NCBI GenBank assembly: GCA_035541135.1
Contig: DATKNW010000041.1
Span: 30,565 to 94,564, forward strand
Length of the DNA stretch: 64,000 bases
Source of the DNA: Verrucomicrobiia bacterium
GTDB lineage: Bacteria > Verrucomicrobiota > Verrucomicrobiia > Palsa-1439
Direction of reading: 5' to 3'
Part shown: one piece after another, positions 1 through 48,235 of the stretch
Position numbering within the stretch: position 1 is the stretch's first letter
Layout: each line of letters starts with the position of its first letter
Position numbers and translations under genes: made by a program
The notes under the pieces: generated by a model
What the model saw: the letters and a program-made list of their open reading frames with translations, nothing else
What the model was told of the DNA's origin: nothing
Database searches by the model: none

Positions 1-1525
1 TTGGCTCGAATCGGAGCGTGTCGTTCTGCAACTCGGCTGGACCAGATACGACAAAGAACTGTACTGGCAGACCGGCGTCTGCTGTCGCGTGAAGTTCCAT
101 GCTCTTTGTCCCAAGGCGCTGATCCGGGATCTTGGGGAAATCAATCGTCTGCGGCTTCCCTTCCTTGTTTATGACGTTGACCCAAAAGTGAATCGGCCGG
201 TCCGCCGAGCGATATTCGTTGTTGCCCGGGTGATATGCCATCCCCCACGGTTCCCACGGCGGTCCTTGCCGAACCACCCCGCCGCGTCCGAGCCACACGC
301 GAAACGTATCCGTTCCCGTCTGTGTGATCGCGCCCGTGCTGACCTTGTACAGAATTGGCCCGGGCGCGTGGCCCACTTCCGCGCCGCCGTAGAGGTTCGT
401 GGGCGAGCGATCGAGAAATGCGGCCTCGACCTTCCACGTCACGCCATCTTCCAAGAATTGCGGATGAATCTCCGCCGTGCCAGCCTTTTCCAGTGGCGCA
501 GGTTGACCGTTGATAATAAAATCGATCACCTGCGGCTTCTTGGAGAGAGGCGCTGCCATGAAGTCATTCACCGTACGGGCAAGCTCCTCGTCAAAGTACC
601 AATACGCCTTCGCCCTGTCTCCTTGCCATTTGTTGTAGGGCACCGCCTTGAAGTTGGCTGTGCCCAGCGATGACGCGTCGACCAGCACACCCGACGCCAC
701 GTCGATGGGCTTGAGGTCAACGGTCTGATTCAGCGCGGCCCCCGCGGGGAGGCGATACTGAACGGCCTTGCGAATAAACATCGCGATGACGCCAGCCGAC
801 ACCCCGTTCCAGTCGTAGTGCCCGTTTCCGAGCTCCGCGCATTCGCCAATGAGACACCGGTCGCTTCTGGCCCGAAGCTTAAGGACCGACGCGCTGTCTT
901 TGCGCCACGTCTCGCCCCAATTCGAACCGCCCACTTCGGCCCACTCGGAAGAAACGTGGAAGATCGGGACGTCGTCGGTTACGTGGCCCGGATACCAGCC
1001 CTTGTACGGCAAGATGGCGAACACGCGTTTCGGGTTCCATTCCGCCATGCCCCAAACGAACGGCGTGGCCGCCGAGTGACCCACCGCCAATAGCGGGGCG
1101 AATTCGATCTCCTGATAACCAGACTCCTTCGCCAGATCGACAAGCACCTGTTGAAGCTGGTCACCCGCGTCTTTCAACGGACCGAACTTGAGGCTGAGCG
1201 GAGGGTCACTCTTGCCAATTGATCCGGGAGAGATCCAAACGATGCCCAGTCCGGAGTCGGTCGCAGCCTGCCGAATTACTGAATCCTGAAACATCGGTTT
1301 CTCCAGCATGTTCTGCAGGCCAACAATCAGACCTCTCACACGTGTGCAATCAGGTGGAAGCCATAAGTACGCCCTCTGCTCGGAATTCGTGCCCACCGGC
1401 ACTGAGTATTGCCATACGACGGCAAATGAGGAAGGAATCGCTGTCGGCAGCAAGATTACAGCCCAAACCAAGTACGCGTATCGGAAAAACGTCGTGCAGG
1501 TTCTCGTAAGAATGGTCTTTGCCAT
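1..1525 (-). CDS. secreted alpha/beta-hydrolase-fold-like protein (C-terminus lies beyond left window edge); paralog of 42903..44573
   Basis: Not in the ORF track because it is truncated by the window edge. Manual minus-strand translation from ATG at 1525..1523 gives an uninterrupted frame to position 1 (MAKTILTRTFFRYAYLVWAVILLPTAIPSSFAVVWQYSVPVGTNSEQRAYLWLPPDCTRVRGLIVGLQNMLEKPMFQDS...EFAPLLAVGHSAATPF...). The N-terminus looks like a signal peptide. It is clearly paralogous to the 556-aa product of 42903..44573 (FLWIPPNCRRVRAVVVGQNNMIEEG..., LEFAPVAPLGHSAMASY). The plus-strand ORFs 89..673, 818..1093 and 1219..1509 are antisense artefacts of this gene. Confidence 0.7.
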   Translation of the reverse strand, partial: MAKTILTRTCTTFFRYAYLVWAVILLPTAIPSSFAVVWQYSVPVGTNSEQRAYLWLPPDCTRVRGLIVGLQNMLEKPMFQDSVIRQAATDSGLGIVWISPGSIGKSDPPLSLKFGPLKDAGDQLQQVLVDLAKESGYQEIEFAPLLAVGHSAATPFVWGMAEWNPKRVFAILPYKGWYPGHVTDDVPIFHVSSEWAEVGGSNWGETWRKDSASVLKLRARSDRCLIGECAELGNGHYDWNGVSAGVIAMFIRKAVQYRLPAGAALNQTVDLKPIDVASGVLVDASSLGTANFKAVPYNKWQGDRAKAYWYFDEELARTVNDFMAAPLSKKPQVIDFIINGQPAPLEKAGTAEIHPQFLEDGVTWKVEAAFLDRSPTNLYGGAEVGHAPGPILYKVSTGAITQTGTDTFRVWLGRGGVVRQGPPWEPWGMAYHPGNNEYRSADRPIHFWVNVINKEGKPQTIDFPKIPDQRLGTKSMELHATADAGLPVQFFVVSGPAELQNDTLRFEP

Positions 1526-1530
1526 TACCG

Positions 1531-3858
1531 TTAAGTCTCCTTTTCCAGGCACAGCACGATGGTTGAGCGCGGCGCGACTTTCAGTGGGGCTCTCAGAACG
1601 ACCCTTTTACCCGAGACCAATTCCTGCGCCTTTCGGACCCCGGCCGGTGGGCTCAGTTCATACGTCTTGTCCTTTGTCATGTTCATGCCAATGAGAAATG
1701 GGCCGTAGCGGAGGGTGTAAAACGATCCCTTGCCCGCGTACACGTTTTCATCGCCGGGACGGAACCGGACACCCTCGGGGATCTTGGCGATGGGGAGTTC
1801 CTCCCCGGCCAACGCCGAGTGAAGGTCGCCGGGGTACCGCAAGCCACCACCGCCGAAACCGAAGTTGACCCAATCGGGCCGCGTGAACGTGAGGCCGCTG
1901 GGTTCGAACTCGGTCTTCTCCCACGAAACCGCGATCCGATCGAATCGCGGAACGATGTAATGAGTGCGGGCGAGAAAGTTGATGGCATTCCGCGCCCGCC
2001 AATACAGCGACGCGTAAAGCATCTCGTCACCATGCTTGAGGGCGACCACGCCGTCTTCCTCGTCCGCCCACACAAAGTCGGGCCGACCCGCGGTCATCGG
2101 TACCCGGTGCGAACTGGGCGGCTGCGCTTTGAGCAGCTCGTACTGGTCGGGAACCTCCAAAAGCTCGGCCGTTACGCGCAGGCTCTTGTCCTTCATGCGG
2201 TCTTCGACCGATTTGAAGAACTGATTGTCCGAGAACATCTGTTGCGCATAGCCAACAGCCTCGGGATCGAGCGTGGCCGCGACCGCGTATAAAGCCGAAC
2301 CATCCCACGACACGCGCTCGCCGTAGGTCACTTCTCCCGGATAATGAGCATCGCGCCAACCGATGATTGTCTCGGCGCGCATCGCTCGGTTGCCATCCGC
2401 ATCGAGCATCGGATATCGGAAGACAGCGCGCGTGTGCGCGATCTTCTCCAACTGGCTCGCTATTGTTTTGTCGCCCGGCTGACCGGGATCGGGTCGTGTG
2501 GCGTCGTAAATCTGCGTCACCCAGTCCAACACTTCGCCGTAGTAGCCGACGAACCCCAGTTCCTTTGTCAGCCCCTTGTCCGTAAGCTGATAGTAGTTGT
2601 CACCCACGGGCTTCGCGGGGCCGTTGTCGGTGTCGCTGCCCAACCACGGCTGCAAGCCGACCGACTCGTAGAGATAATGGCGCACGTCCGGTTCTGTCAG
2701 CGCCTTGGCGGGTTCCAGAACCGCGATGCCACGATTTGCCAGGTATATGTACAAATCGGTGATCATCGATTGGTTGGTGTACAGCCGGCGGTGACGACGG
2801 TGCCAATCACGGCTCGCCTGAAGCATTGCGGAGAACCCGTCACGGCGTTTCACTTTGCCGCCCACACCATCGTTGATGTCCTCATCGAGATGGGGCGTCA
2901 ACGGTCCAATCAGCAGCCGCACCACGTCACCCGATGGTCCAAGCCCAAACCAGTCCGGATTTGGAGTCGCTGGATCCGATTCGGCCAGTCGCGGATTCTG
3001 GCGGTAAGCGACATAGATATGGTCGAGTCCGTCGATCACCTTCTCGATCATGCGCTGATTGTGCCAAGCGGCCGACCACTTCACGTGGTATGCTCTGGCG
3101 AGAAACTGCATTTGCATTTGGGTCAACGGCTTGTCCGCGGCCAACAACCCGTTGATCTCGTGGTTGATTCGGAGTTTCAGTTGATCGAGCACTTCCGGCC
3201 CGGGCTCCTTGCGGACCGGCGGATCGCCCGGAACCTTGCCCTGTTTCTCGTCGGCGGGAGGGACGAAGAAAGCATCCGTGTGAGTATACAGACGGTACAA
3301 GCCACGGGTTGGTTCCGTCATTGGTTTCTGATATTGGGCGAATGCAGTTCCGTATGGCCAGATCCGGCCGATGCTGCGGACCTCAAAATGCAGATTGGTC
3401 CGCCCCTTGGTCATCGACACTGGCAACGGCGACGTGTTGTAGAAGAAACGACCATTGTACCCCGGCGCATCGCTGTCACTGCCGAAATCGAGCAGGTCGA
3501 CGTCGCCGAGGTGACGATAACCAATCTGTTTGCCTTCGCAGAACAGGATCAGGCGGTTCGAGTTGGTGTCCGAGCCCCACAGACGAATTGTCACGTAGGT
3601 CGGCTTGTCCGGGTCGACATTGAGAAGAAACGATATGTGTCCGCCTTCCCAGCTTTCTGTTTTGGATGGGAGAAGCCGACGCGCCGGCTCATCCAAGCCT
3701 CCTTTGATGACATCACAGGCGTCGCACTGCACTTGATGTTGCTGTTCGGAATCGCGGTTGCCGAACACAAGCGTGTCCATGAGTCCGCCAGCTTTCGCGG
3801 AAGGTAATGCCAAAAGAAACACGGAGGTATAGATGAGGAACAGTGGACAGGTCTTCAC
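1531..3858 (-). CDS. secreted putative glycan-degrading enzyme (N-terminal beta-sandwich plus large alpha-helical catalytic-like region); family unresolved
   Basis: 775-aa ORF with a GTG start at 3858 that overlaps the upstream stop codon. Signal peptide MKTCPLFLIYTSVFLLALPSAKA. The first ~650 aa are paralogous to the N-terminal region of 12402..16643 (shared blocks FGN, IRLWG/IKLWGG, QIGYRH, GRFFY, MTKGRTNL, LQPWLGSD). I could not assign a GH or PL family by eye. Confidence 0.6.
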   Translation of the reverse strand: MKTCPLFLIYTSVFLLALPSAKAGGLMDTLVFGNRDSEQQHQVQCDACDVIKGGLDEPARRLLPSKTESWEGGHISFLLNVDPDKPTYVTIRLWGSDTNSNRLILFCEGKQIGYRHLGDVDLLDFGSDSDAPGYNGRFFYNTSPLPVSMTKGRTNLHFEVRSIGRIWPYGTAFAQYQKPMTEPTRGLYRLYTHTDAFFVPPADEKQGKVPGDPPVRKEPGPEVLDQLKLRINHEINGLLAADKPLTQMQMQFLARAYHVKWSAAWHNQRMIEKVIDGLDHIYVAYRQNPRLAESDPATPNPDWFGLGPSGDVVRLLIGPLTPHLDEDINDGVGGKVKRRDGFSAMLQASRDWHRRHRRLYTNQSMITDLYIYLANRGIAVLEPAKALTEPDVRHYLYESVGLQPWLGSDTDNGPAKPVGDNYYQLTDKGLTKELGFVGYYGEVLDWVTQIYDATRPDPGQPGDKTIASQLEKIAHTRAVFRYPMLDADGNRAMRAETIIGWRDAHYPGEVTYGERVSWDGSALYAVAATLDPEAVGYAQQMFSDNQFFKSVEDRMKDKSLRVTAELLEVPDQYELLKAQPPSSHRVPMTAGRPDFVWADEEDGVVALKHGDEMLYASLYWRARNAINFLARTHYIVPRFDRIAVSWEKTEFEPSGLTFTRPDWVNFGFGGGGLRYPGDLHSALAGEELPIAKIPEGVRFRPGDENVYAGKGSFYTLRYGPFLIGMNMTKDKTYELSPPAGVRKAQELVSGKRVVLRAPLKVAPRSTIVLCLEKET

Positions 3859-6800
3859 GGATGATCCTCCGCCGAGTCCTCCGTCCGGACCACGCGACCA
3901 TCCTTGCTCTCGGTGACATCCACCGAGACGTCGTTGCCATCCAAGTCGTGAATGTTGATTTCCTGAATGCGTCCATCGGCCAGTTCCACTCGCAGGCGAT
4001 CCGCGCTGGTGGCTTCGGCAGACCCAATCACCGGCGAGTTCTCGTATGGCTCAATCACCGTAAGCAGTCGGGCTTCAGTCCCGTTGATGCGGATTGCATA
4101 CGCCTTGCGCCGTTGGCTTTCGTCACCGGGCGGATAGTCGCTGCCCAGCGTCGCTTTGAAGCGCGCGGCCCCACGCCCGCTGAGATCAACCCGCACAAAT
4201 GCCGGCTGCTTGCCATCGGCTGGTTGACCCGGCGTCGCCGTCTTGTATTCCGTCCCGACGATCTTGATTGGTCCTCCAAAATAATCCTGCCCGGACTGCT
4301 TGGGCTGTTCCACGTTTACGAACGTGGGGGCGAACTCCGATAGAGGAATCTCTTTGCCGTCGGCCATCACAATTCGCGCATTCGCCCAGAACACCGTCGG
4401 CTTCCGTGACAGCTCGACCTTCGTCTCCAGCTCGAGTTGTTTGACGCCTGCAACCGACACATCAATGTCAGCTTTCCCCAGAATCCATGCGCCAAATCTG
4501 CCCTCGGACAAAACCTTTCCGTCCCCGCGCACCGTGTAGAACAAGCGCTTCTCGACTTCATGATCCTCGGGAACCGTGCCAATCATGATCTCCTGCGATT
4601 TTGGCCAAAGAGTGTGAACATCGAGTTTGAGCACGCCATTCTCGCTGGCCAGCGCGCGGGTGCCTTCGTTGTCGGCGCCCGGCCCCCACCGCATTTCGAA
4701 CCGGCTGACCGCCGGGGCATTCGCCGAGTACCAATCGCAGTCCGTCACAAATTGCGCGCCGCCGACCGGATCGGGATTCCACTGGGCATCATGCCGCAGG
4801 AACTTCTTGCCGGGCGCCTCCAGCCCCCGAAATCCTTTCATCTGAAGCAGACTCTCGAAGACGTGGGGCCGCGTGCCCTTCACATAATCCGCCAGCACCA
4901 CGTAATCATCCGTCACCACCAAAAGGCGGCGCTGAAGGATTGGCTCGGTGAAATCCGTGAGGGTTCCATACTGCGGCGCGTTCGTGGGGATGGGGACATA
5001 GCGGCCCTCGCGCCACGTCTTTTCTTCAAAGGTCTTGACCGGCACGTAATCGTACACCATTCCTCCGTAGGGGGGATTCGACCAGCGAGTAGTTGTCTCG
5101 ACCGCGGCGGCCTGCATCAGCTTTCCGGTGTGAAACAACAGGCGATTGCCCGGAGAGGCTTCCTGCATCTTCCGATCCACGACAACCATGTTGTGGGCGA
5201 TGGACGTCTGCGTGTAGAACTTGTACATGAACGGCTCGTAGCCGTACCACACCATCTCGGGATTGTAGAAGCTGCGCCCGTACCGCATCAGCGAGAGCAG
5301 GTCGGTGCGGTCGAAATGGCCGTGCGCCCAGCCGTGCGTCCCGTAGTGCAACACCGCCTGAATCTGCTCGCGAATCGGCCGGTTCTCGGTCTGCGACCGC
5401 AACATAACCAAACCAACGTTGTCCGCGAAGGCGGAGTTGCGAAACTGCTCTGGCGTTTCCGCCGGCAACTCCGGCACGCCGTAGAGCAGGTCACGTTTTC
5501 CGTCGCCGCGTTTGATAACGGCGGCATAGGCCGGATCGCGAAACAGGAAGTAGGCAATCTCGAACGGCTGTCCCCCCACTTCGGTGCGGTTTCCCGACAC
5601 CCGATTCTCCGTTGAATCGTTCACGCCGAACATGACCCCGCGGTAGTCGAGGAACGGCAACAAACTGTTCCACAAATCCGTGATCTGCCGGTAGGGACGA
5701 TGAATGGGGCCCCAGATCTCGTTGCACATCCCAAAGGGTCGGTCGGTCCCGGCTCCTCCGCGCCCGCCCGAGAGTTCGGACGAGAGCATCACCTTGGGCG
5801 AGTAATTTGCTGGAACCCACATATCTCTGAAGTTGATGCCCCATGGCTGCATGGCCAGCGCCACCTGCGAGAACTCGCTGGCGCACCAGACGTTGTAACT
5901 GATCGAGCACTCATACCACCAACCGTCATCCATCGTTCCCTTGGCCAATTGGTCGACCACCCCGGCGGGTCCGGAAAAAAAGCGCTCGGCCGCTGCCAGG
6001 TCCTGCAGCGCCAGCGCGCAATACAACGCGCCACACATTTCCGAGAGATTCCAATTGTTGATGGGGCCGTTGAGGCTCGCCTGATTGAGGGTCTCCATGA
6101 GCATTCGAAACATCCGTTCAATCTGCTGTCGATCGGACTCGCTCAGCACGTCGGCATCAAGGATCATATCGTAGACCATTGCGACGTGCTGGAAGAAATG
6201 GCCCTCTTGAACCAGGCTCTGATTGCAGGCGCGCAGGGTTTTCGGGTAACCCTCATTTGGATCGGACAATCGCCGCAAAAACTCGGCGGCTTTCTCCGCG
6301 TACTGTTTGTTTCCCGTGAGCTGCCAGGCAATTCCGCACGCCATCAGGTCGTTCTCGTTTGGGGTACGAAACAGAAACGGTCCCATCGTGTCGTCCGGGT
6401 CATTATTCGGCGGTCGGGCAACCTCGGGCACGTTCCATCGTTCCGCCCGCCGCACGTAATCGTCCTGCGCGGCCTTCGCCCAATCGTACTTCCGCGCCTT
6501 TTCGCGAACTTCCCGCCAGCGATCAGCCGTATGGAGAATGTTCGGATGCGGAAGCGCTGCGGCGGTGACGAACGTCAACGTGCCAGCGGCAGACGCGTTT
6601 CCATTGGCGATGGCCTGCAGTACCTGGTTTTCGTGGCCTCCCGCTGGGATGGACGAAGGCACGCTGACACGTACGATGCACGGCTTGCTCTCCCCGGGAG
6701 CCAGCCATAACTCTGACGGCTCCGCCGACGCGGTCATGGCTGTCCAGCCGTAGTGCATGAACGACAATCTCGCTGATTGGGGTTCATCCGTGCAATTGCC

Positions 6801-7469: not shown

Positions 7470-7511
7470 GGCTAGTAATACGTGTCATCGTACAGATCGC
7501 CCCGCGCCTAG

Positions 7512-12380: not shown

Positions 12381-12401
12381 CGGTTTCAGCTCCCATCGTT
12401 G

Positions 12402-32019: not shown

Positions 32020-32033
32020 TTATACTGATGCAT
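32020..32033. promoter_or_regulatory. degenerate copy of the palindromic motif (GTTATACTGATGCA) upstream of the heparinase/GH operon
   Basis: Right arm and spacer are conserved and the left arm is degenerate. The site is ~315 bp upstream of ATG 32349. The downstream region is locally AT-richer (tattatgcgtactccatcatgaatcc). Confidence 0.25.
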
Positions 32034-34547: not shown

Positions 34548-34640
34548 CGACGGTGAGTTTTTCGCAGCTTGAGGACCTCAGCCCACTTTCCAACATTTCA
34601 CCACTCATTACAACGAAACGGTTCAGGGGAACACCAGCGT

Positions 34641-36488: not shown

Positions 36489-36545
36489 TGGGAAACACGG
36501 AGATTGTGGCGGCGTGTCGCGATTACCAGTGGTGTGAGCTCGGCC

Positions 36546-39374: not shown

Positions 39375-39436
39375 GAGACCCTCGGCGTGAAAGCCGGGAA
39401 GGAGCACTACGCACGTTGCATCAGTGGTGTGGTACA

Positions 39437-41794
39437 ATGGCTCTCTCAATCGTCATATGCCGGCATCTTGAATCCGAAGCGCAAGTGAAACCCGACACGA
39501 ATACGCGCCTGACAGCAACTCCGTTTGCACTTTCTCAGGTTTGTCTGCAGGACGGGCCTTTCAAGGAACGCGAAGATGTCAATGCACGGTTTCTTCTGAC
39601 GGTCGACACAGACCGTTTGCTGGCCCGGTTCCGCCAGGAGGCCGGGCTTGCTCCCAAGGCGGAGCCGTACAGAGGATGGGAATCCAAGGAGCTCGGAGGC
39701 CATAGCCTTGGGCATTACCTCTCAGCTCTGTCTCTGCTTTACGCGTCGACGGGCAGTTCGCACGCGCTGGAACGCATTCGGTATATCATCGATGAACTCG
39801 ATGCCTGCCAGACCGCAAACGGTGGCGGCTACGTATTGTCCGTTCCTAGAAGGGTTTTTGAAGATCTTCGGCAGGGCAAAATCAAGGCCTCTGGGGCAAA
39901 CCTGAATGACTGCTGGGCACCGAACTATACACTCCACAAAATGTTGGCCGGCCTTCGCGACGCTTATCGTCTCGCAGGCAACAACAAGGCGCTCGAAGTG
40001 GAACGGAAGTTCGTGGACTGGCTGGCGGACGTCTTGTCCGGGCTCACGGAGGCCCAAATCCAGGAGATGCTCAAGGCGGAACACGGTGGGATGAACGAAG
40101 TGTTGGCCGATCTCGCGGCGGACGCCGGCGACGCGCGTTATCTGCGCATAGCGGAGAGAGAGTTCCATCACAAGGCCGTTCTCGACCCGCTCGCCAACGG
40201 CGAAGACAACCTGAACGGTCTTCACGGCAACACGCAGATTCCAAAAGTCATTGGCCTCGCCCGCGAGTACGAGATGACATCCAACCCGAAATGCCGCGTT
40301 GCAGTGGAGACATTCTGGGACAGCGTGGTGAACCGGCGCTCATTCGCCATGGGCGGGCACGGCGAAAGCGAATACTTTTTCCCACCGGAGCAATTTCCCG
40401 AGAAGCTGACGCCGTACACGGCCGAGACTTGCAACACCTACAACATGATCAAGCTCACGGGGCATTTGTTTTCGTGGGAACCGAAGGCGGCCCACATGGA
40501 TTTTGTGGAGCGCGCGTTGATCAACCACGTGCTCGCCAACATCGGACACCGGCCCGGCGAGTTTGGCTACTTCCTCAGCCTGGCCTCCGTCGGAGTCAAA
40601 GCGTTTTCGCCGCCGTTCGACGCGTGGTGGTGCTGCGTAGGGACGGGCATGGAAAACCCGGCCCGATATGGGGAGATGGTGTATTTCCACGGGCCGGACA
40701 CGCTGTGGGTGAACCTCTTTATGGGCAGCACGCTCGCGTGGGCGGAAAAAGGCGTGAGTTTCAGGCAGGAGACGCGTTTTCCTGAAGAGGATTCGGTGCG
40801 TCTCGTATTCACGTGCAAAAGGCCGGTGCCGTTCGCGCTGAAAATCCGTCACCCCTATTGGTGCGAACACCCGAAGGTGAAAATCAATGGCAAAGCGATG
40901 ACCGTGAAGTCTACGCCGTCTTCATACATGACATTCGAGCGCACTTGGAAGAGCGGCGACACAATACAATTGCGCCTGCCCATGGCGTTGCGTTTGGAGT
41001 TTTTGCCACATTCTGATGACAGGATTGTTGCCGTGATGTATGGACCGATCGTGCTGGCGGGCATCGTTCCCGTCGAACCGGGCGTTTCCAATCCGGCAAC
41101 GCAACGTTTTGCGGATCACCTCGCCGCGAAGAGAAAGTTCGACGCGTTTGCTCCTGTTTTCGTCGGCGCCAGCGCTGCCGACGTGGTGGCGCATCTGCGG
41201 CCGACGGGCGGAACGTTTGCCGAGTTCCGCAGCGAAGGAGTCGTCAAGCTCGCGGACCTCACGTTCGAGCCTCTCTATCGGGTCTACGAGGAACCTTATG
41301 CCGTCCAGTTTCCGTTGATGACGGCAGCGGAATGGGACCGTCGGGAAGTCGAGCTTCGCGCGGAGCAGGAGCAGCGGGCCCGATGGGAAGCCAACACGCT
41401 CGACACGGTCACGCCGGGTTTCCAGCAGTCCGAGATCGAGCACGGAATGCAGTCGGAAAACAGCACGACCGGGGATTTTCTTAATCGGAAGTGGCGGGAG
41501 GCGCACAATGGTTGGTTTTCCTATGAGATGGCCGTCGATCCCGCCGCGCCCAACGTCCTCGTTGCCACGTATTGGGGCGGCGAATGGCAATCCCACAACT
41601 TTGACATTCTGATCGATGGGCAGAAGATCGGCGCCCAGAAATTGCGCGCAAACAGCCCCGGAGATTTCTTCGAGGAGACTTATCCCATCCCGCTCGTCCT
41701 AACGAAGGGCAAATCGAACGTCACCATCCGGTTTCAAGCGCATGCGAACGACACGGCGGGCAGCGTTTACGGATTGCGCACGAGGCGGGACTAA
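39437..41794 (+). CDS. GH127 / DUF1680 family protein (beta-L-arabinofuranosidase-like)
   Basis: First ATG at 39437 (ORF 39416 begins with TTG). DUF1680/GH127 blocks: RFLLTVDTDRLLARFRQEAGL, YRGWESKELGGHSLGHYLSA, ETCNTYNMIKL, WWCCVGTGMEN. No obvious signal peptide. Confidence 0.75.
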   Translation: MALSIVICRHLESEAQVKPDTNTRLTATPFALSQVCLQDGPFKEREDVNARFLLTVDTDRLLARFRQEAGLAPKAEPYRGWESKELGGHSLGHYLSALSLLYASTGSSHALERIRYIIDELDACQTANGGGYVLSVPRRVFEDLRQGKIKASGANLNDCWAPNYTLHKMLAGLRDAYRLAGNNKALEVERKFVDWLADVLSGLTEAQIQEMLKAEHGGMNEVLADLAADAGDARYLRIAEREFHHKAVLDPLANGEDNLNGLHGNTQIPKVIGLAREYEMTSNPKCRVAVETFWDSVVNRRSFAMGGHGESEYFFPPEQFPEKLTPYTAETCNTYNMIKLTGHLFSWEPKAAHMDFVERALINHVLANIGHRPGEFGYFLSLASVGVKAFSPPFDAWWCCVGTGMENPARYGEMVYFHGPDTLWVNLFMGSTLAWAEKGVSFRQETRFPEEDSVRLVFTCKRPVPFALKIRHPYWCEHPKVKINGKAMTVKSTPSSYMTFERTWKSGDTIQLRLPMALRLEFLPHSDDRIVAVMYGPIVLAGIVPVEPGVSNPATQRFADHLAAKRKFDAFAPVFVGASAADVVAHLRPTGGTFAEFRSEGVVKLADLTFEPLYRVYEEPYAVQFPLMTAAEWDRREVELRAEQEQRARWEANTLDTVTPGFQQSEIEHGMQSENSTTGDFLNRKWREAHNGWFSYEMAVDPAAPNVLVATYWGGEWQSHNFDILIDGQKIGAQKLRANSPGDFFEETYPIPLVLTKGKSNVTIRFQAHANDTAGSVYGLRTRRD

Positions 41795-41844: not shown

Positions 41845-42702
41845 TCACTGTTTCGTGTCTGCTTTCTGCGATTCCTTGTCCAGCCGAATAACAGGAAACC
41901 CATCTCGGCCCAGTTCTTCACCGTATACTCCAGTGCGACGCATCGGTGTGAAACAGTTTTCCTTTTCCTTCTTGAGCAACAACAGATAAAGATCTTCAGG
42001 CTTGGGCTGAAAATCGAGACTGAACGAGCATGGCCGGCTGGTGTCCCAATTGTCTGGCGGCGGCCGTTCGTAATAGCGGAACACAAACCTCTTTGTCCCG
42101 TTCTCTCCTTTCAGCACGCTCTTGACGACGAACTCCGTTTCATACCCGGCAAGATATTGGGGTGGTGAACAATCCGCCTTGCCGTGGTAGAGCTCGGACC
42201 ACGTTTTCGTGTCCACGTACCTCCTCTCTGAAAGGGGCCTGGCGATTGCAGCCAAGTCGATTTGATCGGCGGGCAAAACGCCGCAATAGCCAGGATCGGC
42301 CTGGCCGTTAATCGGGGCGAAGCGACCGTCAGGCTCTTTCGTCAAGAACAGCAAATAAGCCTCCTTTTTGGCTGGATCAAACGAAACAAGCCATGGACCA
42401 CTTCGATAAAGTAGTGAGGGATCGCGTTGCCGGTAGTGGTGGAGCACAAAATTCGTAATCGACTGGCTGCCTTTCAACAGTGTCTGGACACGAAATTCCG
42501 TTTCCAACCCCACGACGTCGACTGCAGGGGCAATGTTCGCAAGCACTGTGCATTCCGAGGTGTCTTTGGTCGAAAGGGGTTGAGCAATGACGACAAGGTC
42601 TGCCTGATCGAACCTCTTTTGGTAGCTCATGGTTTGCACGAACCGTGCGTGAGCCACAAGGGCAAAACTATGGATCAGTAGCACTACAGGAATTGTCTTC
42701 AT
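41845..42702 (-). CDS. secreted hypothetical protein made of two tandem ~130-aa homologous halves
   Basis: Signal peptide MKTIPVVLLIHSFALVAHA. The halves align on (E/D)LVVIAQPLS...TEF(R/V)V(Q/K)(T/S)(L/V)LKG...F(V/V)..YY(R/E)..P... and on ...EAYLLFL(T/K)KE.... No family recognised. Confidence 0.6.
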   Translation of the reverse strand: MKTIPVVLLIHSFALVAHARFVQTMSYQKRFDQADLVVIAQPLSTKDTSECTVLANIAPAVDVVGLETEFRVQTLLKGSQSITNFVLHHYRQRDPSLLYRSGPWLVSFDPAKKEAYLLFLTKEPDGRFAPINGQADPGYCGVLPADQIDLAAIARPLSERRYVDTKTWSELYHGKADCSPPQYLAGYETEFVVKSVLKGENGTKRFVFRYYERPPPDNWDTSRPCSFSLDFQPKPEDLYLLLLKKEKENCFTPMRRTGVYGEELGRDGFPVIRLDKESQKADTKQ

Positions 42703-42902: not shown

Positions 42903-44573
42903 TTACTGCTTAATGATGAATTGCCGCACCACCGGGGTGGCGGATTGCAGCTTTGGCTCGACGGTGCGGCCCCATTGCCACGCCACAATCGTAATCGTCA
43001 ACGGGAATTTTGCACGGGGGGGAATCTTGGTAAGCGTGAGCGTATCACCATCCACTTCCGCAGGGCCTTCGCGAACGTAGAAGTACACCGGCACGTTCGC
43101 ATCGGATGTGGCATTCAACTTCAGTGTCTTTAGGCCGAGTTTCTGATCGGGGATTGGCGGAAAAGTGATCTGTTGCGCGGCGCCCTCCAGATTGCGCGGC
43201 GGCAGGCGCAACACAGCTTGTTGGACTGCGCTCTTGTATTTCGCATCACCGGGATGACTTGCCAGCAACCAGATGTCGCCCATGCGCCGGTCCGCCGGAA
43301 TACTCGCGCGGTTGAAGCGGACCGCAAATTTGTCCGCGGCCAACTGAACCACGGGACCGCTGATTCGCGAAAGCACGACCGGGCCACCACCGGAGGCGTG
43401 GCCGATTGCCACGCCGTTCGTCAACCCGGTCCACTTCGCCGGATTGGTGCCGGCAGGTACTGTGTCGAGGAACGCGCCCGTCAACGTGAACGTGAGGCTG
43501 TCGTCGAGCCGCGGCAATTTCAGACGGATTTGTTCGTGTGTGTTAGGTGTTTGATCTACGATCTTCCCGTCCTGAACGAAGCCGACGAGTTGCGGCGCTT
43601 TGCCACGCTGAGGATTAAACTTCTCCGTGGCGCGCGCCATCTCACCGTCGAAACACCAAAACGCTTCCCTGACATCGCCCGTGTAGGAGCCAAACGGCGC
43701 GGCGACCGCGCGCGGCCCTTCCTCTTTGCGCCAGCGATCCACCAGCCAACCTTTCCGTGGATCCACGGGGACCAACGCTGGCGGACGGTCTGAGGGCGCG
43801 TCCGCCGGCAGACGTTGCTCGCAGGCCTTGCGCAGAAACATCGCCAGAAAGCGCACCAGCTCATCGGAGTAGTCAAAATGCCCATGCCCAACGTCGGCCA
43901 GCATTGCCACCGGCGTATCCGGATGCTTGGCACGAAATTCCATCGCGGGCGTGAGGCGATCTTCCCACCATTCGTATTCGCCCATGACCATCAGGCCCGG
44001 CACGCCCTCGATGCCCCGACTTCCCCAGTCCAGATTTGGACGGCCATTGCCGGTGAGACGGGTGAGAGGCGCATCACCGTGCACGGACAGGATCGCGAGC
44101 GTGCGGGCCTGGTTCCAAGCGGCAAAATTCCACGGGTAACTCGCCATGGCTGAGTGTCCCAACGGCGCGACCGGCGCAAACTCAAGTTCGTCATATCCCG
44201 ATTTGCGCGCCAAGGTCTTCAACATATCGTTGAAGCGTTCGGTGGCCACGTCATTGGTGGCGGCGTTTTGGAAGTAGTCCAGCATCGGCGCAATGAAGAT
44301 TTCGGCAACACCGAGTTCCGCAAGAGTCTGTCGGAAATCGGGATGTTCCAGAATCCCCTCTTCGATCATGTTGTTCTGTCCGACGACAACGGCTCGCACC
44401 CGCCGGCAATTCGGCGGAATCCACAGGAAGGCCATGGGATGCTCGGTCGAATTTGGCAACGTGATGGAATCGATCGGAACCGACCACTGCCATTCAGCCG
44501 CACGAGCCCGAGACGCGAATGCACCGAAAACAAATGCGCTGAGCAGAGCTAATGCATATGCGATGCGGTTCAT
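42903..44573 (-). CDS. secreted alpha/beta-hydrolase-fold-like protein; paralog of the truncated gene at 1..1525
   Basis: 556 aa. Signal peptide MNRIAYALALLSAFVFGAFASRARA. Collinear with the 1..1525 product (WIPPNCRRVRAVVVGQNNMIEEG; LEFAPVAPLGHSAMASYPWNFAAWN; VMGEYEWWEDR; DVGHGHFDYSDELVRFLAMFLRKA). Confidence 0.65.
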   Translation of the reverse strand: MNRIAYALALLSAFVFGAFASRARAAEWQWSVPIDSITLPNSTEHPMAFLWIPPNCRRVRAVVVGQNNMIEEGILEHPDFRQTLAELGVAEIFIAPMLDYFQNAATNDVATERFNDMLKTLARKSGYDELEFAPVAPLGHSAMASYPWNFAAWNQARTLAILSVHGDAPLTRLTGNGRPNLDWGSRGIEGVPGLMVMGEYEWWEDRLTPAMEFRAKHPDTPVAMLADVGHGHFDYSDELVRFLAMFLRKACEQRLPADAPSDRPPALVPVDPRKGWLVDRWRKEEGPRAVAAPFGSYTGDVREAFWCFDGEMARATEKFNPQRGKAPQLVGFVQDGKIVDQTPNTHEQIRLKLPRLDDSLTFTLTGAFLDTVPAGTNPAKWTGLTNGVAIGHASGGGPVVLSRISGPVVQLAADKFAVRFNRASIPADRRMGDIWLLASHPGDAKYKSAVQQAVLRLPPRNLEGAAQQITFPPIPDQKLGLKTLKLNATSDANVPVYFYVREGPAEVDGDTLTLTKIPPRAKFPLTITIVAWQWGRTVEPKLQSATPVVRQFIIKQ

Positions 44574-44582
44574 CTGTGGCGT

Positions 44583-45692
44583 TCACGTAAGTCTGGCCGC
44601 AGCCTCCGCGGTGATCTGCCATTTCAACGGTTTACCGGCCACGAAGCGGCGCAGTTCCTCGACCATGCAGCGACCCATTCGGCCGCATTCGGCTCCCAGG
44701 GAGCCGGCGATGTGGGGAGTCAGCACAACGTTGGGCAGCGTGAGCAGCGGCGAATCAAGCGCCGGCGGCTCGGGATCCGTCACGTCCAAGACCGCCGTCA
44801 GATCGCGCCGTTGACGGAGTACGTCGATCATCTCCTGTTCTCGTATGATCGCTCCTCGAGCCGTGTTAATCAGGGTCCCGCCGCGTTTCATTGAGGCAAT
44901 ATGTCGCCCAGTGACAAGGCCCCGCGTTCCCGTCAGCTTCGGGGTATGAATCGAGACGACGTCCGCGAGCTTGAAAACATCGGGCAGCGAGCACCGTTCG
45001 ACGCGGAGTTGTCTGGCCTCGTCCGCCGTCAGAAATGGACAGTAGACGATTCGACGGATGTCAAATGGGGCAAGGAGTTCCAGGACCTTTCGAGCGACCA
45101 CGCCGACGGAAACCAAACCCACCGTGCTCCGGTATCCGCCGGGCACGGAGCGCGTGTGGTCTGCCCACCCCTCCCCTTTACGGGTGGCGACGGCATAGCT
45201 CCAGAAACGTTTGAGACTGAGAAGGATGACTCCCAGTGTGTATTCGGCAACCGGGACCGCGTTGGCCGCCGACGCGCTGGTGATAATGATGTTACGCTCC
45301 CAAAACGCAGCGCTGGTAATGGGGCGAATTGAGCCGGCCCCGTAAAACACAGCCTGTAGTCTTGGAGACGCCTGCAAAAACGCCTTGTCCATTACCGGCG
45401 CCCCCCAACCAGAAAAGATGACGTCGGCGGGGGCCAGGAGCCAGGGTTTGCGGGCGATGGATTCCCGTGTCTGGAGTGGGGCAACGATATCGACCAACTC
45501 GGCGATCTCGCGTTGTTCTTCCGCACCATAAACCAACTCGAACGCGCCTTTGTCCAGGATGTACAACCCCTTCAGCCGCTTCCCGTCACGCCCGGCCCCG
45601 CGGAAAAACTTCGGGCCTTTGCCACCGAGTGGACGCACCGCCACGCCGCGCACTGTGTGATGTAATTGATTCGCCCGAGCCGCCTTCATCAT
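44583..45692 (-). CDS. D-isomer-specific 2-hydroxyacid dehydrogenase family protein (NAD-binding)
   Basis: Blocks GLVSVGVVARKV (GxGxxG-like), VVSIHTPKLTGTRGLV, VLTPHIAGS. The start ATGATG overlaps the stop of the upstream gene as ATGATGA. Confidence 0.8.
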   Translation of the reverse strand: MMKAARANQLHHTVRGVAVRPLGGKGPKFFRGAGRDGKRLKGLYILDKGAFELVYGAEEQREIAELVDIVAPLQTRESIARKPWLLAPADVIFSGWGAPVMDKAFLQASPRLQAVFYGAGSIRPITSAAFWERNIIITSASAANAVPVAEYTLGVILLSLKRFWSYAVATRKGEGWADHTRSVPGGYRSTVGLVSVGVVARKVLELLAPFDIRRIVYCPFLTADEARQLRVERCSLPDVFKLADVVSIHTPKLTGTRGLVTGRHIASMKRGGTLINTARGAIIREQEMIDVLRQRRDLTAVLDVTDPEPPALDSPLLTLPNVVLTPHIAGSLGAECGRMGRCMVEELRRFVAGKPLKWQITAEAAARLT

Positions 45693-46100
45693 GGCACCAG
45701 TCGAATGCGATAGAACCGGGATGGGGCATTGGTGGCCCCACCGGGATCCGTATAGTTCGTGACCGCCCCGCCCGCGATGGGAAGGACTGTCAGGGAGTTG
45801 ACAATGTCGACGAAGTTATTGCTGTATCCACCGCTGGCGTCGCCGCCACTGACCTGCACCATGTTGGTGCGCACGCCAGCCGTCGTCCAAGCAACCACAA
45901 CATCGCTGGTCTCCCGCGCCACGGACAGGATCCGGAACACCGATGCCGGGTTGGTCGGGTCCAACCCTGCCAAAAACTGATTGGTGTTGCTCATGCCCTT
46001 GCCAAGCGGATCCGCATTGGCCGCAGCCTGTGGGCAATTGGTGCAATTGAAGTGTTGCATCTGCCATTGCTGGAAGATCGACAGGACATATGCGCTGGCC
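45689..46100 (-). repeat. conserved 3'-terminal gene segment encoding the shared C-terminal domain (copy 4 of 4, most diverged)
   Basis: Retains the block ctgattggtgttgctcatgcccttgccaagcggatccgcattggccgcagcctgtgggca, near-identical to copies 1 and 2. Elsewhere it is more diverged. Confidence 0.65.
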
Positions 46101-48235
46101 GCGCCGGAATTCGCGCTCTCGCCACCGGCATTGACCGCCGACACCACATAGTAGTATGTCGTGCCATCGACGACGGTGGTATCGGTGTACGCGGTCGCCA
46201 CCACGTTCGATGCGATGGTGGTATAGGGCCCGCCGGCAACGGTCGAACGCTTCGCGTTGTAGCCGGTTGCTCCGGATGAGGCGTTCCATTTCAAGCTCAC
46301 CTGCGAATTGGAGGCAGTTGCTGTAAGACCCGTGGGCGCCGACGGTGGACTGGCCGTCTGACCCCAGAATTCGACATCCGCCACATTGCAATAGCCACTG
46401 GCGGGACCGAGATACCGCACGTAGCGGTAGCTGTTGGTGTTGGTAATCGCCTGCACCGTCAAGCTCCCATCGGTCGGAGTAACGCTGATTGTAAACAGAG
46501 TCACCGGCGTCGTGAAGGTGGCGTTGGTCGCAGCCTGGAAGACTCCCCCCACCATGCGCGACGCGTACGTGCTCCTTGGGCAATACTTGATCTGCGTGAT
46601 GGGGTACGCATTGCTCAAGTCCAGCCCGGCCCAATCCCCGCTGGCATCCGGTCCGTCAAAGAAATTGTTGAGGCTGCCGTCAAACACGTTCGTGATCGTA
46701 TTGCCGCCATTGGCGTACGATCCCGACGTGCCAATGAGGGTGCTGCTCAGTTTCGCGACATTGGTTGCAGTCACGCTGGCTTCGGACGAATTGGTTGTTT
46801 CACCGCTGGATGACAGCGCCGAGACCACGTAGTAGTAGGTGGTGTCATTGATCAATCCGCTGTCCGTATAAATCGTGCTGGTTGTATTCGACACAACGAT
46901 CGAGTATGGCCCGCCACTAACGGTGGCGCGCTTGAGGTTGTAGCCGGTGGCACCGGCCGAACCCCACCATTGCAGGACGACCGATAATCCGTTGTTGACC
47001 ACGTTTGTTGCCGTCAGCCCGCCGGGAGCGACAACTGATGAGAGGGGGTTCAGCGAATGTGTCAACGTGGTATAGCCCAGTTGGTCATACCCGCCGCTGT
47101 TGGGGCCGTAATTGCCGCCGCCACCTTCCGGCCGCACCATGGCCGCGTATTGCGACGTGTACGGCGCGGCGACGCCTTTGAGATTAACCCAGTGGTTGTA
47201 CCACAGGTCCCAGGTCGGACGGATGTCCCCGAGACTGTTCGTGGAAATCACGGTTTGAATCACCGGGTCGCACGTGTCGTAGCAGACATACGGCACCGGG
47301 TTTGTGAGGTTATATTTGGCGAAATACTCGACCAACATCAACGGTTTGTTGTTTTCATACCCAAACAGATCCAGTCCCTGATTCCAGGCAATCTGGCAGA
47401 ACGCGCCGAGCAACGCGACGTCGAGGCCCGAATGCCCCTGATCGCGCCCTTCCTCCTGACCCTGCCCAACATATCCTGGATGGATATAATCAACGGTCCG
47501 ATCAATGTTTCCGTTTCCGATCCCGCTTTCGAAATAGGTGATGGCTTCGTTGAATTTATTGCTGTCATCACACACAATGCCAATCGCCAGCATCGAGGTC
47601 ATGTTGCACAAATCCCAGTTGGCCCAATAATGAGTGGTGCAGGCATTGTTGTGATTGACGAGAAAATTGTGGTTCAGCGGGTAGAACACATTCGTCATCA
47701 TTTTTTGGAACTGGGCAAAGTTCAGCGGTTGCCAGCCGCTGTAGTTGCGCATCAGTTCTCCGGCACAGGCAAATTCATATCCGTAGAGCCCCGAAGCCAG
47801 ATACTCGTTAGAATCACCGGAAACATTTGTCAGGGTGGAGGACCAGGCATTCATGATCTGCACCGACTTGTTGGCATAATTGGTGTCGCCGCTGCCGTAG
47901 TACCGCAACGCGCACTGATAAGCCGCCGCGATATCGTACATCAAGTCCGGATAGTTCCCACCCGTAGACGTGCGGGTAATGATCGCCTGTGGATCCGGCG
48001 TGTAGTTGGTCTGCGCGTGAGAATTCGCAATTAGGATATTCCAACTATCGATCCAGGGATGATTCCCCGCAGCCACATTGGTGGCCATGCGGTTGAGATC
48101 GGCGGCCGTCTCCAAAGCGCCGGGATGCACGAACTGGCCGCGTGCGGGCAGGATCGCCACCGTCAGTAGGAACAGAAACGCTATTGGCAAGATCCCTTGA
48201 ATTCCGTTCTTCAAAGAAGTTGGCTCTCGTTTCAT
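45689..48235 (-). CDS. secreted multidomain protein with alginate-lyase-like toroid N-domain, FN3, F5/8 type C (discoidin/CBM32-like) domain, FN3 and the conserved C-terminal domain
   Basis: ORF 45689..48364. The likely start is ATG at 48235 (MKREPTSLKNGIQGILPIAFLFLLTVAILPARG). N-domain QFVHPGALETAADLNRM...NHNNACTTHYWANWD...RDQGHSGLDV is paralogous to the N-domain of 7512..12380. FN3 motif LQWWGSAGATGYNLKR...TYYYVVSAL. Discoidin block NVFDGSLNNFFDG...YRYVRYL...VADVEFWG. C-terminus SIFQQWQMQHFNCTNCPQAAANADPLGKGMSNTNQFLAGLDPTN...SRFYRIRLVP. Confidence 0.8.
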   Translation of the reverse strand: MKREPTSLKNGIQGILPIAFLFLLTVAILPARGQFVHPGALETAADLNRMATNVAAGNHPWIDSWNILIANSHAQTNYTPDPQAIITRTSTGGNYPDLMYDIAAAYQCALRYYGSGDTNYANKSVQIMNAWSSTLTNVSGDSNEYLASGLYGYEFACAGELMRNYSGWQPLNFAQFQKMMTNVFYPLNHNFLVNHNNACTTHYWANWDLCNMTSMLAIGIVCDDSNKFNEAITYFESGIGNGNIDRTVDYIHPGYVGQGQEEGRDQGHSGLDVALLGAFCQIAWNQGLDLFGYENNKPLMLVEYFAKYNLTNPVPYVCYDTCDPVIQTVISTNSLGDIRPTWDLWYNHWVNLKGVAAPYTSQYAAMVRPEGGGGNYGPNSGGYDQLGYTTLTHSLNPLSSVVAPGGLTATNVVNNGLSVVLQWWGSAGATGYNLKRATVSGGPYSIVVSNTTSTIYTDSGLINDTTYYYVVSALSSSGETTNSSEASVTATNVAKLSSTLIGTSGSYANGGNTITNVFDGSLNNFFDGPDASGDWAGLDLSNAYPITQIKYCPRSTYASRMVGGVFQAATNATFTTPVTLFTISVTPTDGSLTVQAITNTNSYRYVRYLGPASGYCNVADVEFWGQTASPPSAPTGLTATASNSQVSLKWNASSGATGYNAKRSTVAGGPYTTIASNVVATAYTDTTVVDGTTYYYVVSAVNAGGESANSGAASAYVLSIFQQWQMQHFNCTNCPQAAANADPLGKGMSNTNQFLAGLDPTNPASVFRILSVARETSDVVVAWTTAGVRTNMVQVSGGDASGGYSNNFVDIVNSLTVLPIAGGAVTNYTDPGGATNAPSRFYRIRLVP

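Follow-up and report, generated by a model that had tools for sequence, protein, structure and literature searches.

The locus described here raises the question of whether a run of giant exported proteins and an adjoining block of enzymes without signal peptides form one glycan-degrading system and, if so, what that system would degrade. It occupies positions 1-48235 of a 64,000-nucleotide stretch (hereafter the window) from a Verrucomicrobiia bacterium (GenBank assembly GCA_035541135.1, contig DATKNW010000041.1, positions 30,565 to 94,564 of the forward strand). The original prediction, made from the sequence alone, described a single large glycan-utilisation locus with surface lyase-like giants and a cytoplasmic processing block. 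Open reading frames (ORFs) of at least 150 amino acids across 1-64000 were scanned using Pfam, NCBIfam and PDB sequence searches supplied further family assignments, and signal peptides and prepilin leaders were judged by inspection of N-termini. Gene content, predicted folds, conserved neighbourhoods and motif positions were established, and from these the enzyme activities, cellular locations, binding of LacI to the motif and substrate were inferred. On this basis 1-48235 is predicted to be a carbohydrate-active-enzyme (CAZyme) cluster without SusC/SusD, built from two modules that elsewhere occur separately. The favoured reading, to which a probability of roughly 0.6 is given, is that both modules serve one LacI-controlled polysaccharide-catabolic pathway.

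Two modules and a shared operator-like motif

A large glycan-utilisation cluster with exported lyase- and esterase-like proteins, an SSS importer, a LacI regulator and an enzyme block without signal peptides was upheld, the homologues of its exported part recurring together in related genomes and a 14-bp motif preceding every unit. All ORFs named in the original prediction were recovered at the same coordinates, and Pfam backed SSF, Laminin_G_3, LacI, Hepar_II_III_N and Hepar_II_III_C, GH3, GH97 (three domains), HAD and Alginate_lyase together with fn3/PKD, most confirmed domains scoring above curated cut-offs. Seven genes absent from that prediction were added (19324-19956, 20023-20748, 21331-21936, 21999-22772, 23321-27271, 27452-30649 and 41845-42702). 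Genes of polysaccharide lyase (PL) family PL12, glycoside hydrolase (GH) families GH3, GH97 and GH146 and further PL-like genes lie with an SSS symporter and a LacI regulator inside 48 kb, as is expected of a CAZyme gene cluster. There was no Pfam match to a TonB-dependent receptor or SusD among the scanned ORFs, the transporter being the SSS family sodium:solute symporter (17487-19298, minus strand; PF00474 4.5e-30, TIGR00813). The cluster is truncated at position 1, its genes continuing past the edge.

Module A, the exported module, consists of a 1185-1204-amino-acid PL17-like protein, a 775-amino-acid toroid protein (also fused into a 1432-amino-acid giant), two alpha/beta-hydrolase esterases, two PL5/PL38-like proteins (one with FN3/CBM62, the other with FN3/PKD), the SSS symporter, a 2-hydroxyacid dehydrogenase and GH146. 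Module B, whose products have no signal peptides, consists of LacI, a PL12 heparinase-III-like protein, a NagZ-type GH3, GH97 and a HAD hydrolase. Minus-strand products carried signal-peptide-like or prepilin-type leaders on inspection, and no such leader was seen on the products of 32349-41794 or on the dehydrogenase (44583-45692). The earlier statement that the plus-strand enzymes lack signal peptides was borne out to this extent, the leader of GH146 (MALSIVICRHLESEAQ) being ambiguous.

The family of the 1204-amino-acid protein was scanned in one genome per species, which gave 43 loci, and protein look-ups brought the total to approximately 50. These loci span at least six phyla (Verrucomicrobiota, Planctomycetota, Armatimonadota, Lentisphaerota, Bacteroidota and Bacillota), with hosts among Verrucomicrobiota, Phycisphaerae, Tepidisphaeraceae, Capsulimonas, Victivallis, Paenibacillus luteus, Arcicella, Bacteroidaceae and Prolixibacteraceae; marine Flavobacteriia also host the family, at 32% identity. 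Neighbours were counted by cluster analysis of loci L002-L049 plus tblastn. Beside the family were encoded GH43 with GH43_C2 (14 loci), SSS (14), the 556-amino-acid family (13), the 775-amino-acid family (12), a PF00144 beta-lactamase-like hydrolase (8), short GH43 (8), GH39 (6), GH36 (5), 2-hydroxyacid dehydrogenase (5 loci by cluster analysis, 6 by tblastn), PL5/38-like proteins (4 and 5 loci, respectively), GH88/105 (4), GH2 (4), GH95 (4), GH146 (3) and LacI (several). The dehydrogenase homologues were found in L009, L015, L016, L020, L041 and L042 and those of GH146 in L007, L014 and L042, the Phycisphaerales locus L042 carrying dehydrogenase-SSS-1204-775-556-GH146 in one row. Judged by these neighbourhoods, the far ends of the cluster in the window (1-19298, GH146 at 39437 and the dehydrogenase at 44583) are predicted to be functionally tied.

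Sugar genes of several further kinds accompany the family. In Victivallis (L037) RhaA is followed by LacI-DUF1559-SSS-1204-775 and another heparinase II/III-like gene; L064 has additional GH35, GH27, GH39, GH43, GH95 and apiosidase-like genes; and in L048 RhaT and RhaA are the only carbohydrate genes beside a 1196-amino-acid homologue. GH88/105 lies directly upstream of the 775- or 1204-amino-acid homologue in L002 and L040 and in the flanks of L018 and L030, a position which fits the handling of lyase products.

Module B was found in other company. When metagenomes were scanned with the PL12-like protein, 10 close loci were recovered, in all of which a NagZ-type GH3 (67-82% identity) directly follows the PL12 homologue. 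An SSS homologue was present in 8 of the 10, LacI in L051 and L056, HAD in L051 and L053 (41-42% identity) and GH97 in L053, and the other neighbours of the pair were GH29, GH141-like, GH28, an Alginate_lyase-like protein and GDSL esterases. Homologues of the 1204-, 775- and 556-amino-acid proteins were absent from all 10, and because it recurs without these families LacI-PL12-GH3(-GH97-HAD) is considered a module of its own. The plus-strand block, originally taken as one unit, is thereby better described as a mixture, in which LacI-PL12-GH3(-HAD/GH97)-SSS forms a separate conserved module and only GH146 travels with the exported one. The SSS homologues were 44-73% identical beside the 1204-amino-acid family (14 loci) and 37-52% identical beside the PL12/GH3 pair (8 loci). 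LacI homologues of 47-52% identity lie beside the former in L014 and L016 and beside the latter in L051, with further LacI genes in L037, L056 and L064.

The two modules share a motif in the window. The 14-mer TGCATACTGATGCA has 5-bp palindromic arms around ACTG (TGCAT-ACTG-ATGCA) and occurs exactly at 21150-21163, in the 582-bp gap upstream of 20748, and at 30789-30802, which is 60 bp upstream of the LacI start and 140 bp upstream of 30649. A copy with one mismatch (TGCATACTGATACA, 22886-22899) lies 114 bp upstream of 22772, one with two mismatches (TGCATACAGGTGCA, 48609-48622) upstream of 48235, and a weaker site with three mismatches and the 8-mer core ATACTGAT intact (GTTATACTGATGCA, 32019-32032) 317 bp upstream of the PL12 gene. 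All five sites are intergenic, one per promoter region, and together they would serve six transcription units (22772->21331; 20748->1 and beyond; 30649->23321; the divergent LacI; 32349->41794; and 48235->41845), the 30789 site being common to the LacI and 30649 units. The sequence flanking the five sites is not conserved. Hits with up to three mismatches numbered 11 in the window compared to 4.2 +/- 1.95 in shuffles, none of which reached 11, and the expected number of exact matches for one 14-mer is approximately 5e-4 (arithmetic estimate for 64 kb, both strands). The TGCATACTGATGCA sites are candidate LacI operators.

With regard to transcript length, the ATGA overlap at 17487-17490, the GTGA overlap at 3855-3858 and the 5-nt gap at 1526-1530 were confirmed on the minus strand, and the 582-bp gap corresponds to 20749-21330 provided that the DUF1559 gene starts at ATG 20748. 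The claim that the remaining gaps are of 0-66 bp depends on one start codon: the gap before the 1204-amino-acid gene is 42 nt if it starts at GTG 7469, in agreement with the claim, and 99 nt with the database call at ATG 7412 (P0241, 1185 amino acids), which exceeds it. The spacing would allow very long transcripts; judged by the motif sites, the minus-strand genes from 22772 to 1 appear to form two units or more. Promoter and terminator scans of the window performed no better than on shuffles.

Several points weigh against a single pathway. Among approximately 60 loci the modules adjoin only in this window, and they may serve different substrates; the 14-mer was not found in the related loci; the five sites all have the same orientation, and that of the PL12 block is weak (three mismatches); no GH88/105 gene was found among the scanned ORFs of the window itself; and a NagZ-type GH3 with PL12 suggests glycans of N-acetylglucosamine (GlcNAc) and uronate, a poor fit to arabinogalactan or pectin. 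The last point keeps alive the alternative that two or more independent glycan loci without a common substrate adjoin here, an exported plant-heteroglycan cassette and a cytoplasmic LacI-PL12-NagZ-GH97-HAD set for GlcNAc/uronate oligosaccharides (for example heparosan-like, or from a microbial exopolysaccharide). This would agree with the PL12/GH3/SSS(/LacI/HAD/GH97) arrangement in the 10 metagenome loci beside GH29, GH141-like, GH28 and GDSL genes, and with the finding that a PL12 or HAD homologue was present in none of the 43 genome loci of the 1204-amino-acid family, where GH3 matches were confined to weak ones in two marine loci. It is nevertheless judged unlikely, as the same 14-bp motif stands ahead of both gene sets, LacI homologues of like identity go with each module elsewhere, GH146 ends the plus-strand block yet neighbours the exported module in L014 and L042, and Victivallis also joins the cassette with a heparinase II/III-like gene.

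Predicted exported enzyme families and giant surface proteins

The 1204-amino-acid ORF (1185 amino acids from the start at 7412; 3855-7412, minus strand) is predicted to encode an exported, distant PL17-like lyase with Ig/NPCBM_assoc-like N-terminal domains, a toroid, a heparinase II/III-C-like sandwich and an NPCBM-like C-terminus. Its earlier description as a heparinase II/III-like lyase (3855-7469) holds at the level of fold, although the protein is remote from anything characterised. As a single sequence it matched Alginate_lyase only (24.7 bits), while 24 members of the family gave Pfam matches to Alginate_lyase (12 members), NPCBM (11), NPCBM_assoc (11), Hepar_II_III_N (7) and Hepar_II_III_C (3). 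A profile of these 24 sequences aligned with the PL17 structure 8bdd (1.1e-11) across toroid and sandwich, with HGxxHGHFD and HNxxVVD in register, and its other matches were two further PL17 chains and a PL35 chondroitinase, with 7bjt at 3e-4 and 9irq at 0.002. The two-domain PL17 alginate/oligoalginate lyases (8bdd, 7bjt) have the same toroid and sandwich; unlike them the protein is 450 amino acids longer, with Ig/NPCBM_assoc-like N-terminal and NPCBM-like C-terminal domains, is linked to them by profile only and has a genomic context without alginate-pathway genes. This level of similarity fits a sister family of PL17 rather than membership. Comparison of the family with the PL12 protein of the window by hhalign aligned the correct motifs without significance (E 0.086), and the same comparison with the 775-amino-acid family gave no relationship. 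A PL40 ulvan lyase identity for the family or its marine relatives was discarded, as profile searches gave no match to 9vtk.

The secreted 775-amino-acid protein (1531-3858, minus strand) was modelled with AlphaFold (pLDDT 80.6) as three domains: a CBM35/DUF6805-like beta-sandwich, which resembles the C-terminal domain of GH146 and CBM35/CBM6, an (alpha/alpha)6 toroid and a C-terminal beta-sandwich. The top Foldseek matches of the model were PL8 and PL35 lyases and a GH78 rhamnosidase, at TM scores of 0.33 or below. PL27, which has an N-terminal beta-sandwich and an (alpha/alpha)6 barrel (PMC8377490), shares the layout of the first two domains and was not among the structural matches. The model indicates that the protein is a toroid-plus-sandwich carbohydrate enzyme without a close solved relative, either a lyase or a hydrolase. 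The secreted 556-amino-acid protein (42903-44573, minus strand) has the predicted fold of an alpha/beta-hydrolase followed by C-terminal beta-rich domains (pLDDT 88), and in its family H140-S141-A142 and H232 are invariant and G139 is nearly so. The predicted fold, the nucleophile-elbow serine and the conserved histidine mark the family as esterase-like. Its paralogue at 1-1525 (minus strand; 32% identity over 526 amino acids), which is cut by the window edge and has a signal-peptide-like N-terminus, is likewise a predicted secreted alpha/beta-hydrolase. The products of 1-1525, 42903-44573 and 1531-3858 had no Pfam or NCBIfam match, and PDB sequence searches with the 775- and 556-amino-acid proteins returned nothing useful.

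No Pfam or NCBIfam model covers these families, and at least 383 homologues were found for the 1204-, at least 1020 for the 775- and at least 1317 for the 556-amino-acid protein. Homologues of the 775-amino-acid protein at 60-68% identity occur in Verrucomicrobiota, Planctomycetota, Armatimonadota and Sumerlaeota, all labelled hypothetical, and all three proteins are 60-68% identical between these four phyla, with many polar residues invariant. Exported enzymes of different phyla are seldom this similar, which suggests that a cassette has spread horizontally, and recently, among soil and peat bacteria. In some metagenome proteins the 775- and 556-amino-acid families are fused to a PF00144 beta-lactamase-like serine hydrolase (P0044, 1170 amino acids; P0127, 907 amino acids). 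The observation concerns loci L002, L006, L030, L036, L040 and L042, and together with the free-standing neighbour gene (8 loci) the fusions suggest a third esterase-type activity in the cassette.

Several minus-strand genes encode much larger surface proteins. The 1622-amino-acid product of 7512-12380 has a PL5/PL38-like N-domain followed by two fn3, a DUF1349 (ConA-like), two PKD, three Flg_new_2 and six GloVer domains and a C-terminal domain shared with other giants (Pfam). The product of 12402-16643 (ORF of 1432 amino acids) consists of an N-part of the 775-amino-acid type, fn3, DUF1349, fn3 and the shared C-terminal domain, its first ~830 amino acids being a paralogue of 1531-3858 (34% identity over 812 amino acids). 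At 45689-48235 (minus strand) a secreted protein combines a PL5/PL38-like domain with FN3, CBM62, FN3 and the shared C-terminal domain, the CBM62 being homologous to CtCBM62 (2yb7 8.1e-39; 5g56 2.7e-58). The FN3/PKD binding modules proposed for the giants were found, while no discoidin module was detected, the module in 45689-48235 being the CBM62. Toroid homology to PF05426 was scored at 41.1 bits in 7512-12380 and 49.7 bits in 45689-48235 (cut-off 22.2); a profile of six PL5/PL38-like N-domains gave marginal matches only to PL38/PL5 structures (3nfv 0.002, 1hv6 0.11). The 1316-amino-acid secreted product of 23321-27271 (minus strand) carries the shared C-terminal domain and has no recognised fold and no Pfam or NCBIfam match; it is 35% identical over 1055 amino acids to its paralogue 27452-30649 (minus strand), a 1065-amino-acid secreted protein with a PEP-CTERM sorting signal (PF07589, TIGR02595).

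The C-terminal ~145 amino acids are common to four giants (7512-7949, 12402-12839, 23321-23758 and 45689-46108, minus strand), run from DPLGKGMSNTNQFLAGFNPTN to SRYYRVRVLVP at the C-terminus, are 54-85% identical among the four and have no Pfam or NCBIfam match. A profile search of 1.84 billion representatives found the domain in 3764 proteins (349 at E<=1e-30) of 161-2393 amino acids, and it reached the last residue in ~143 of the 150 top matches. Among its carriers are a protease, PKD repeat proteins and autotransporter-like proteins of Verrucomicrobiia. The domain looks like an undescribed sorting or anchoring domain which replaces the PEP-CTERM signal of the paralogue 27452-30649.

The same giants could instead be mainly adhesins or structural surface proteins, with toroids that are binding modules or inactive relics, so that the minus-strand part would be a surface-architecture locus. 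Neither 23321-27271 nor 27452-30649 has a recognisable enzyme domain, proteases, PKD proteins and autotransporter-like adhesins carry the shared C-terminal domain as well, and the N-domain of 7512-12380 lacks the HYWANWD segment which its paralogues conserve and may be non-catalytic, a further point against the single-pathway reading. This reading is considered improbable, given the 60-68% identity and many invariant polar residues of the 775-, 556- and 1204-amino-acid families across phyla and the presence of these three families beside GH43, GH88/105, GH39 and sugar transporters in many genomes.

Uptake, predicted cytoplasmic enzymes and candidate substrate

The secreted Laminin_G_3 protein (16678-17490, minus strand), whose start overlaps the SSS stop (ATGA), had been proposed as an uptake component; this was not supported, and no homologue was found in the related loci examined. 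Two DUF1559 genes lie upstream of the SSS gene: a DUF1559/SBP_bac_10 protein with a prepilin-type N-terminus at 20023-20748 (Pfam, NCBIfam), and a second pseudopilin-like protein at 21999-22772 (Pfam, paralogy and N-terminus). Each is accompanied by a membrane-anchored CxxC protein, of 210 amino acids at 19324-19956 (no family match) and 201 amino acids at 21331-21936 (both pairs on the minus strand), these being 41% identical paralogues. In effect the region 19324-22772, which lies immediately upstream of the SSS gene, holds a DUF1559 and ~205-amino-acid CxxC pair duplicated in tandem, with one operator-like site per copy. Because a DUF1559 gene (L037:7155-7940) also directly precedes the SSS gene in Victivallis vadensis, there are hints that the DUF1559 proteins act in uptake.

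The LacI-family regulator (30862-31905, plus strand) has an N-terminal LacI helix-turn-helix (PF00356, 52.5 bits) and a periplasmic-binding-protein-like effector domain (PF13377, 39.3 bits). The PL12 heparinase-III-like protein (32349-34547, plus strand) matched both Pfam domains (243.5 and 117.6 bits; 5e-72 and 8e-34) and aligned over its full length with 5jmd (1.9e-48) and 4mmh (2e-44), as expected of a relative of heparinase III (PL12) of Pedobacter heparinus and Bacteroides thetaiotaomicron; it scored 229.8 bits against the HepC equivalog NF045573, the cut-off of which is 700. Unlike heparinase III it has no signal peptide and is always paired with a NagZ-type GH3 and usually with SSS, and neither sulfatases nor GH88 were found among the scanned ORFs of the window.

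The GH3 protein (34641-36488, plus strand) is assigned to the NagZ (beta-N-acetylhexosaminidase) type on PDB matches and motif, its best PDB relatives being N-acetylglucosaminidases (6k5j 3.5e-76; YbbD 1e-60) and its C-terminal domain scoring 35.9 bits against a cut-off of 31. The Asp-His motif is present (KHFPGRGNSDVDAH), with Ala replacing Ser/Thr of the NagZ consensus KH(F/I)PG(H/L)Gx4D(S/T)H (Asp-His dyad). A phosphorylase (5vqd) was also among the GH3 matches, and a HAD hydrolase is encoded two genes downstream in the same operon. Since histidine-type GH3 enzymes include glycoside phosphorylases and the HAD gene shares the operon, phosphorolytic steps in the cytoplasm, followed by sugar-phosphate handling, are possible.

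The next gene (36546-38453, plus strand) encodes a GH97 alpha-glycosidase with N, catalytic and C domains (178.9, 197.6 and 102.4 bits), for which the PDB matches (8wg0 3e-66; SusB 7e-65; alpha-galactosidase 5e1q 4e-59) do not separate an inverting glucosidase from a retaining galactosidase type. The start of the HAD-superfamily hydrolase gene (38454-39374, plus strand; Pfam) abuts its stop. The last gene of the block (39437-41794, plus strand), originally called GH127-type, does have a Pfam GH127-type catalytic domain; its closest relative is the founding GH146 enzyme BT0349 (5opj, 4.2e-149, full length, residues 28-788 against 21-799), and it is predicted to be a GH146-like beta-L-arabinofuranosidase with a C-terminal DUF6805 (2.3e-26). 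It carries E337-T-C339 (ExC) and C406-C407 (CC), which presumably correspond to the Zn-binding and nucleophile cysteines described for HypBA1. The D-isomer-specific 2-hydroxyacid dehydrogenase (44583-45692, minus strand; PF02826 2.5e-40) is predicted to be cytoplasmic.

Under the single-pathway reading, a complex acidic heteroglycan would lose its ester groups to the exported esterases (1-1525, 42903-44573) outside the cytoplasmic membrane, and the toroid-type enzymes (3855-7412, 1531-3858, the N-part of 12402-16643, 7512-12380 and 45689-48235) would depolymerise or uncap it, with FN3/PKD/CBM62 modules and the C-terminal domain of the giants tethering several of them to the cell surface. Small products would be imported by the SSS symporter (17487-19298), perhaps assisted by the DUF1559 pseudopilin-like and small membrane proteins, and would be dismantled in the cytoplasm by the PL12-like lyase, NagZ-type GH3, GH97, HAD hydrolase and GH146, with the 2-hydroxyacid dehydrogenase working on a keto- or hydroxy-acid product. 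LacI would occupy the quasi-palindrome before every unit and be released as a degradation product accumulates, derepressing all units.

The neighbours GH43, GH39, GH35, GH27/36, GH2, GH95, GH146, GH88/105, CBM62, RhaA/RhaT and esterases point to an acidic heteroglycan rich in arabinose, galactose and rhamnose; of these, GH88/105 enzymes act on unsaturated uronates and CBM62 binds galactose. The best guess at the substrate is a plant-type glycan, esterified, uronate-containing and rich in arabinose/galactose(/rhamnose), such as type II arabinogalactan, gum or pectic side chains. Going by the family names (Alginate_lyase, heparinase II/III, PL12), the locus would degrade alginate or else heparan/heparosan, chondroitin or another glycosaminoglycan, a reading that is highly improbable: the Pfam Alginate_lyase and Hepar_II_III matches, and PL17 alginate lyases and heparinase III as the closest solved relatives of the 1204-amino-acid family and of 32349-34547, speak for it, but the similarity is remote (E 1e-11 at profile level, with PL5/38-like domains at 0.002-0.2), the PL12 protein falls well short of the HepC cut-off, no PL6/PL7, KdgF, DEH-reductase, sulfatase or GH88 was found among the scanned ORFs, the relatives live in soil, peat and lakes, the GH43, GH39, GH35, GH36, GH95 and GH146 neighbours are not needed for such breakdown, and sulfatases occur only beside the 32%-identical marine flavobacterial relatives.

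Flanking genes, known systems and significance

A secreted 285-amino-acid protein without a family match is encoded at 41845-42702 (minus strand; library scans and N-terminus); a 291-amino-acid gene in L002 was rejected as its homologue (E 0.36). To the right of the cluster, downstream of the 48609 motif site and on the opposite strand, three genes without family match (48965-52383, plus strand) precede an integrase gene and encode a 291-amino-acid secreted, Gly/Asn/Ser-rich, beta-helix-looking protein and two ~410-amino-acid membrane-anchored helical-repeat paralogues (36% identity). The phage-type integrase gene (52574-53812, minus strand) lies directly beside tRNA-Gly(tcc) (53874-53947, minus strand), the tRNA being the only Rfam hit in the window. 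No att-like repeat of the tRNA end of at least 14 nt was found elsewhere in the window, so that no island boundary was set, and nothing indicated that the glycan locus is genomic-island cargo, housekeeping genes following the integrase (acyl/acetyl-CoA synthetase-like, proA-like, proB-like and pyruvate phosphate dikinase, 61071-63911). At 61071-63938 ORFs of 946 (plus) and 925 (minus) amino acids overlap on opposite strands; only the plus ORF has family matches (pyruvate phosphate dikinase domains). The sequence here is GC-rich, and the antisense partner is probably a shadow ORF.

The cluster works like a polysaccharide utilisation locus (PUL) but fails the SusC/SusD test, and it fits best among the CAZyme gene clusters that are common in Verrucomicrobiota. 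The systems most analogous to it are Bacteroides PULs for arabinogalactan-protein/gum arabic and pectin (PL27 Rha-GlcA lyase, GH105/88, GH43, GH127/GH146 BT0349, GH2 and GH97), with which it shares sets of exported lyases, hydrolases and esterases, downstream exo-glycosidases and a GH146 close to BT0349; its related loci also hold GH43, GH88/105, GH2, GH35, GH39, GH95 and rhamnose genes. Unlike these PULs it has an SSS importer with no SusC/SusD or TonB-dependent transporter in the scanned ORFs, a LacI in place of a hybrid two-component system or SusR, late enzymes which would be cytoplasmic rather than periplasmic as they lack signal peptides, and core enzymes without a Pfam or NCBIfam model. 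It resembles the SusC/D-less clusters of Verrucomicrobiota and Planctomycetota in a plant-polymer-degrader lifestyle at phylum level, and the window has the Verrucomicrobial hallmarks of DUF1559/prepilin proteins, PEP-CTERM and GloVer repeats. Limisphaera genomes are rich in GH43, GH78, GH146 (multi-copy) and PLs (PMC13608581); unlike the clusters described there, the window joins two otherwise separate modules and has a repeated operator-like motif. Literature searches on DUF6805, on DUF1559 with polysaccharide and on PL12/GH3/SSS in Verrucomicrobiota found nothing specific.

Three features would raise the locus above the routine, namely three abundant conserved families without a Pfam or NCBIfam model, two modules under one putative operator and the unannotated C-terminal domain of the giants; if none of these readings is true, it is one more CAZyme cluster. 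A bolder proposal, put forward tentatively and with rather more doubt than confidence, is that the 1204-, 775- and 556-amino-acid proteins with SSS form a horizontally spread cassette of three unclassified CAZyme families acting on an abundant soil and peat glycan motif and that, separately, the C-terminal domain is an undescribed cell-surface sorting signal of Verrucomicrobiia. A candidate for the motif is esterified rhamnose-uronate-capped arabinogalactan, from which the 1204-amino-acid enzyme would release rhamnose by beta-elimination.

Much of the polymer degradation in soil, peat and lakes is due to Verrucomicrobiota and Planctomycetota, most of whose exported enzymes lack annotation. The LacI regulator and its candidate 14-bp site would constitute a small putative regulon, and the C-terminal domain, carried by thousands of Verrucomicrobial surface proteins, may mark a new export or anchoring route. 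Characterisation of the 1204-, 775- and 556-amino-acid proteins could yield new families of lyases, hydrolases and esterases and name the substrate of a cassette found in at least six phyla.

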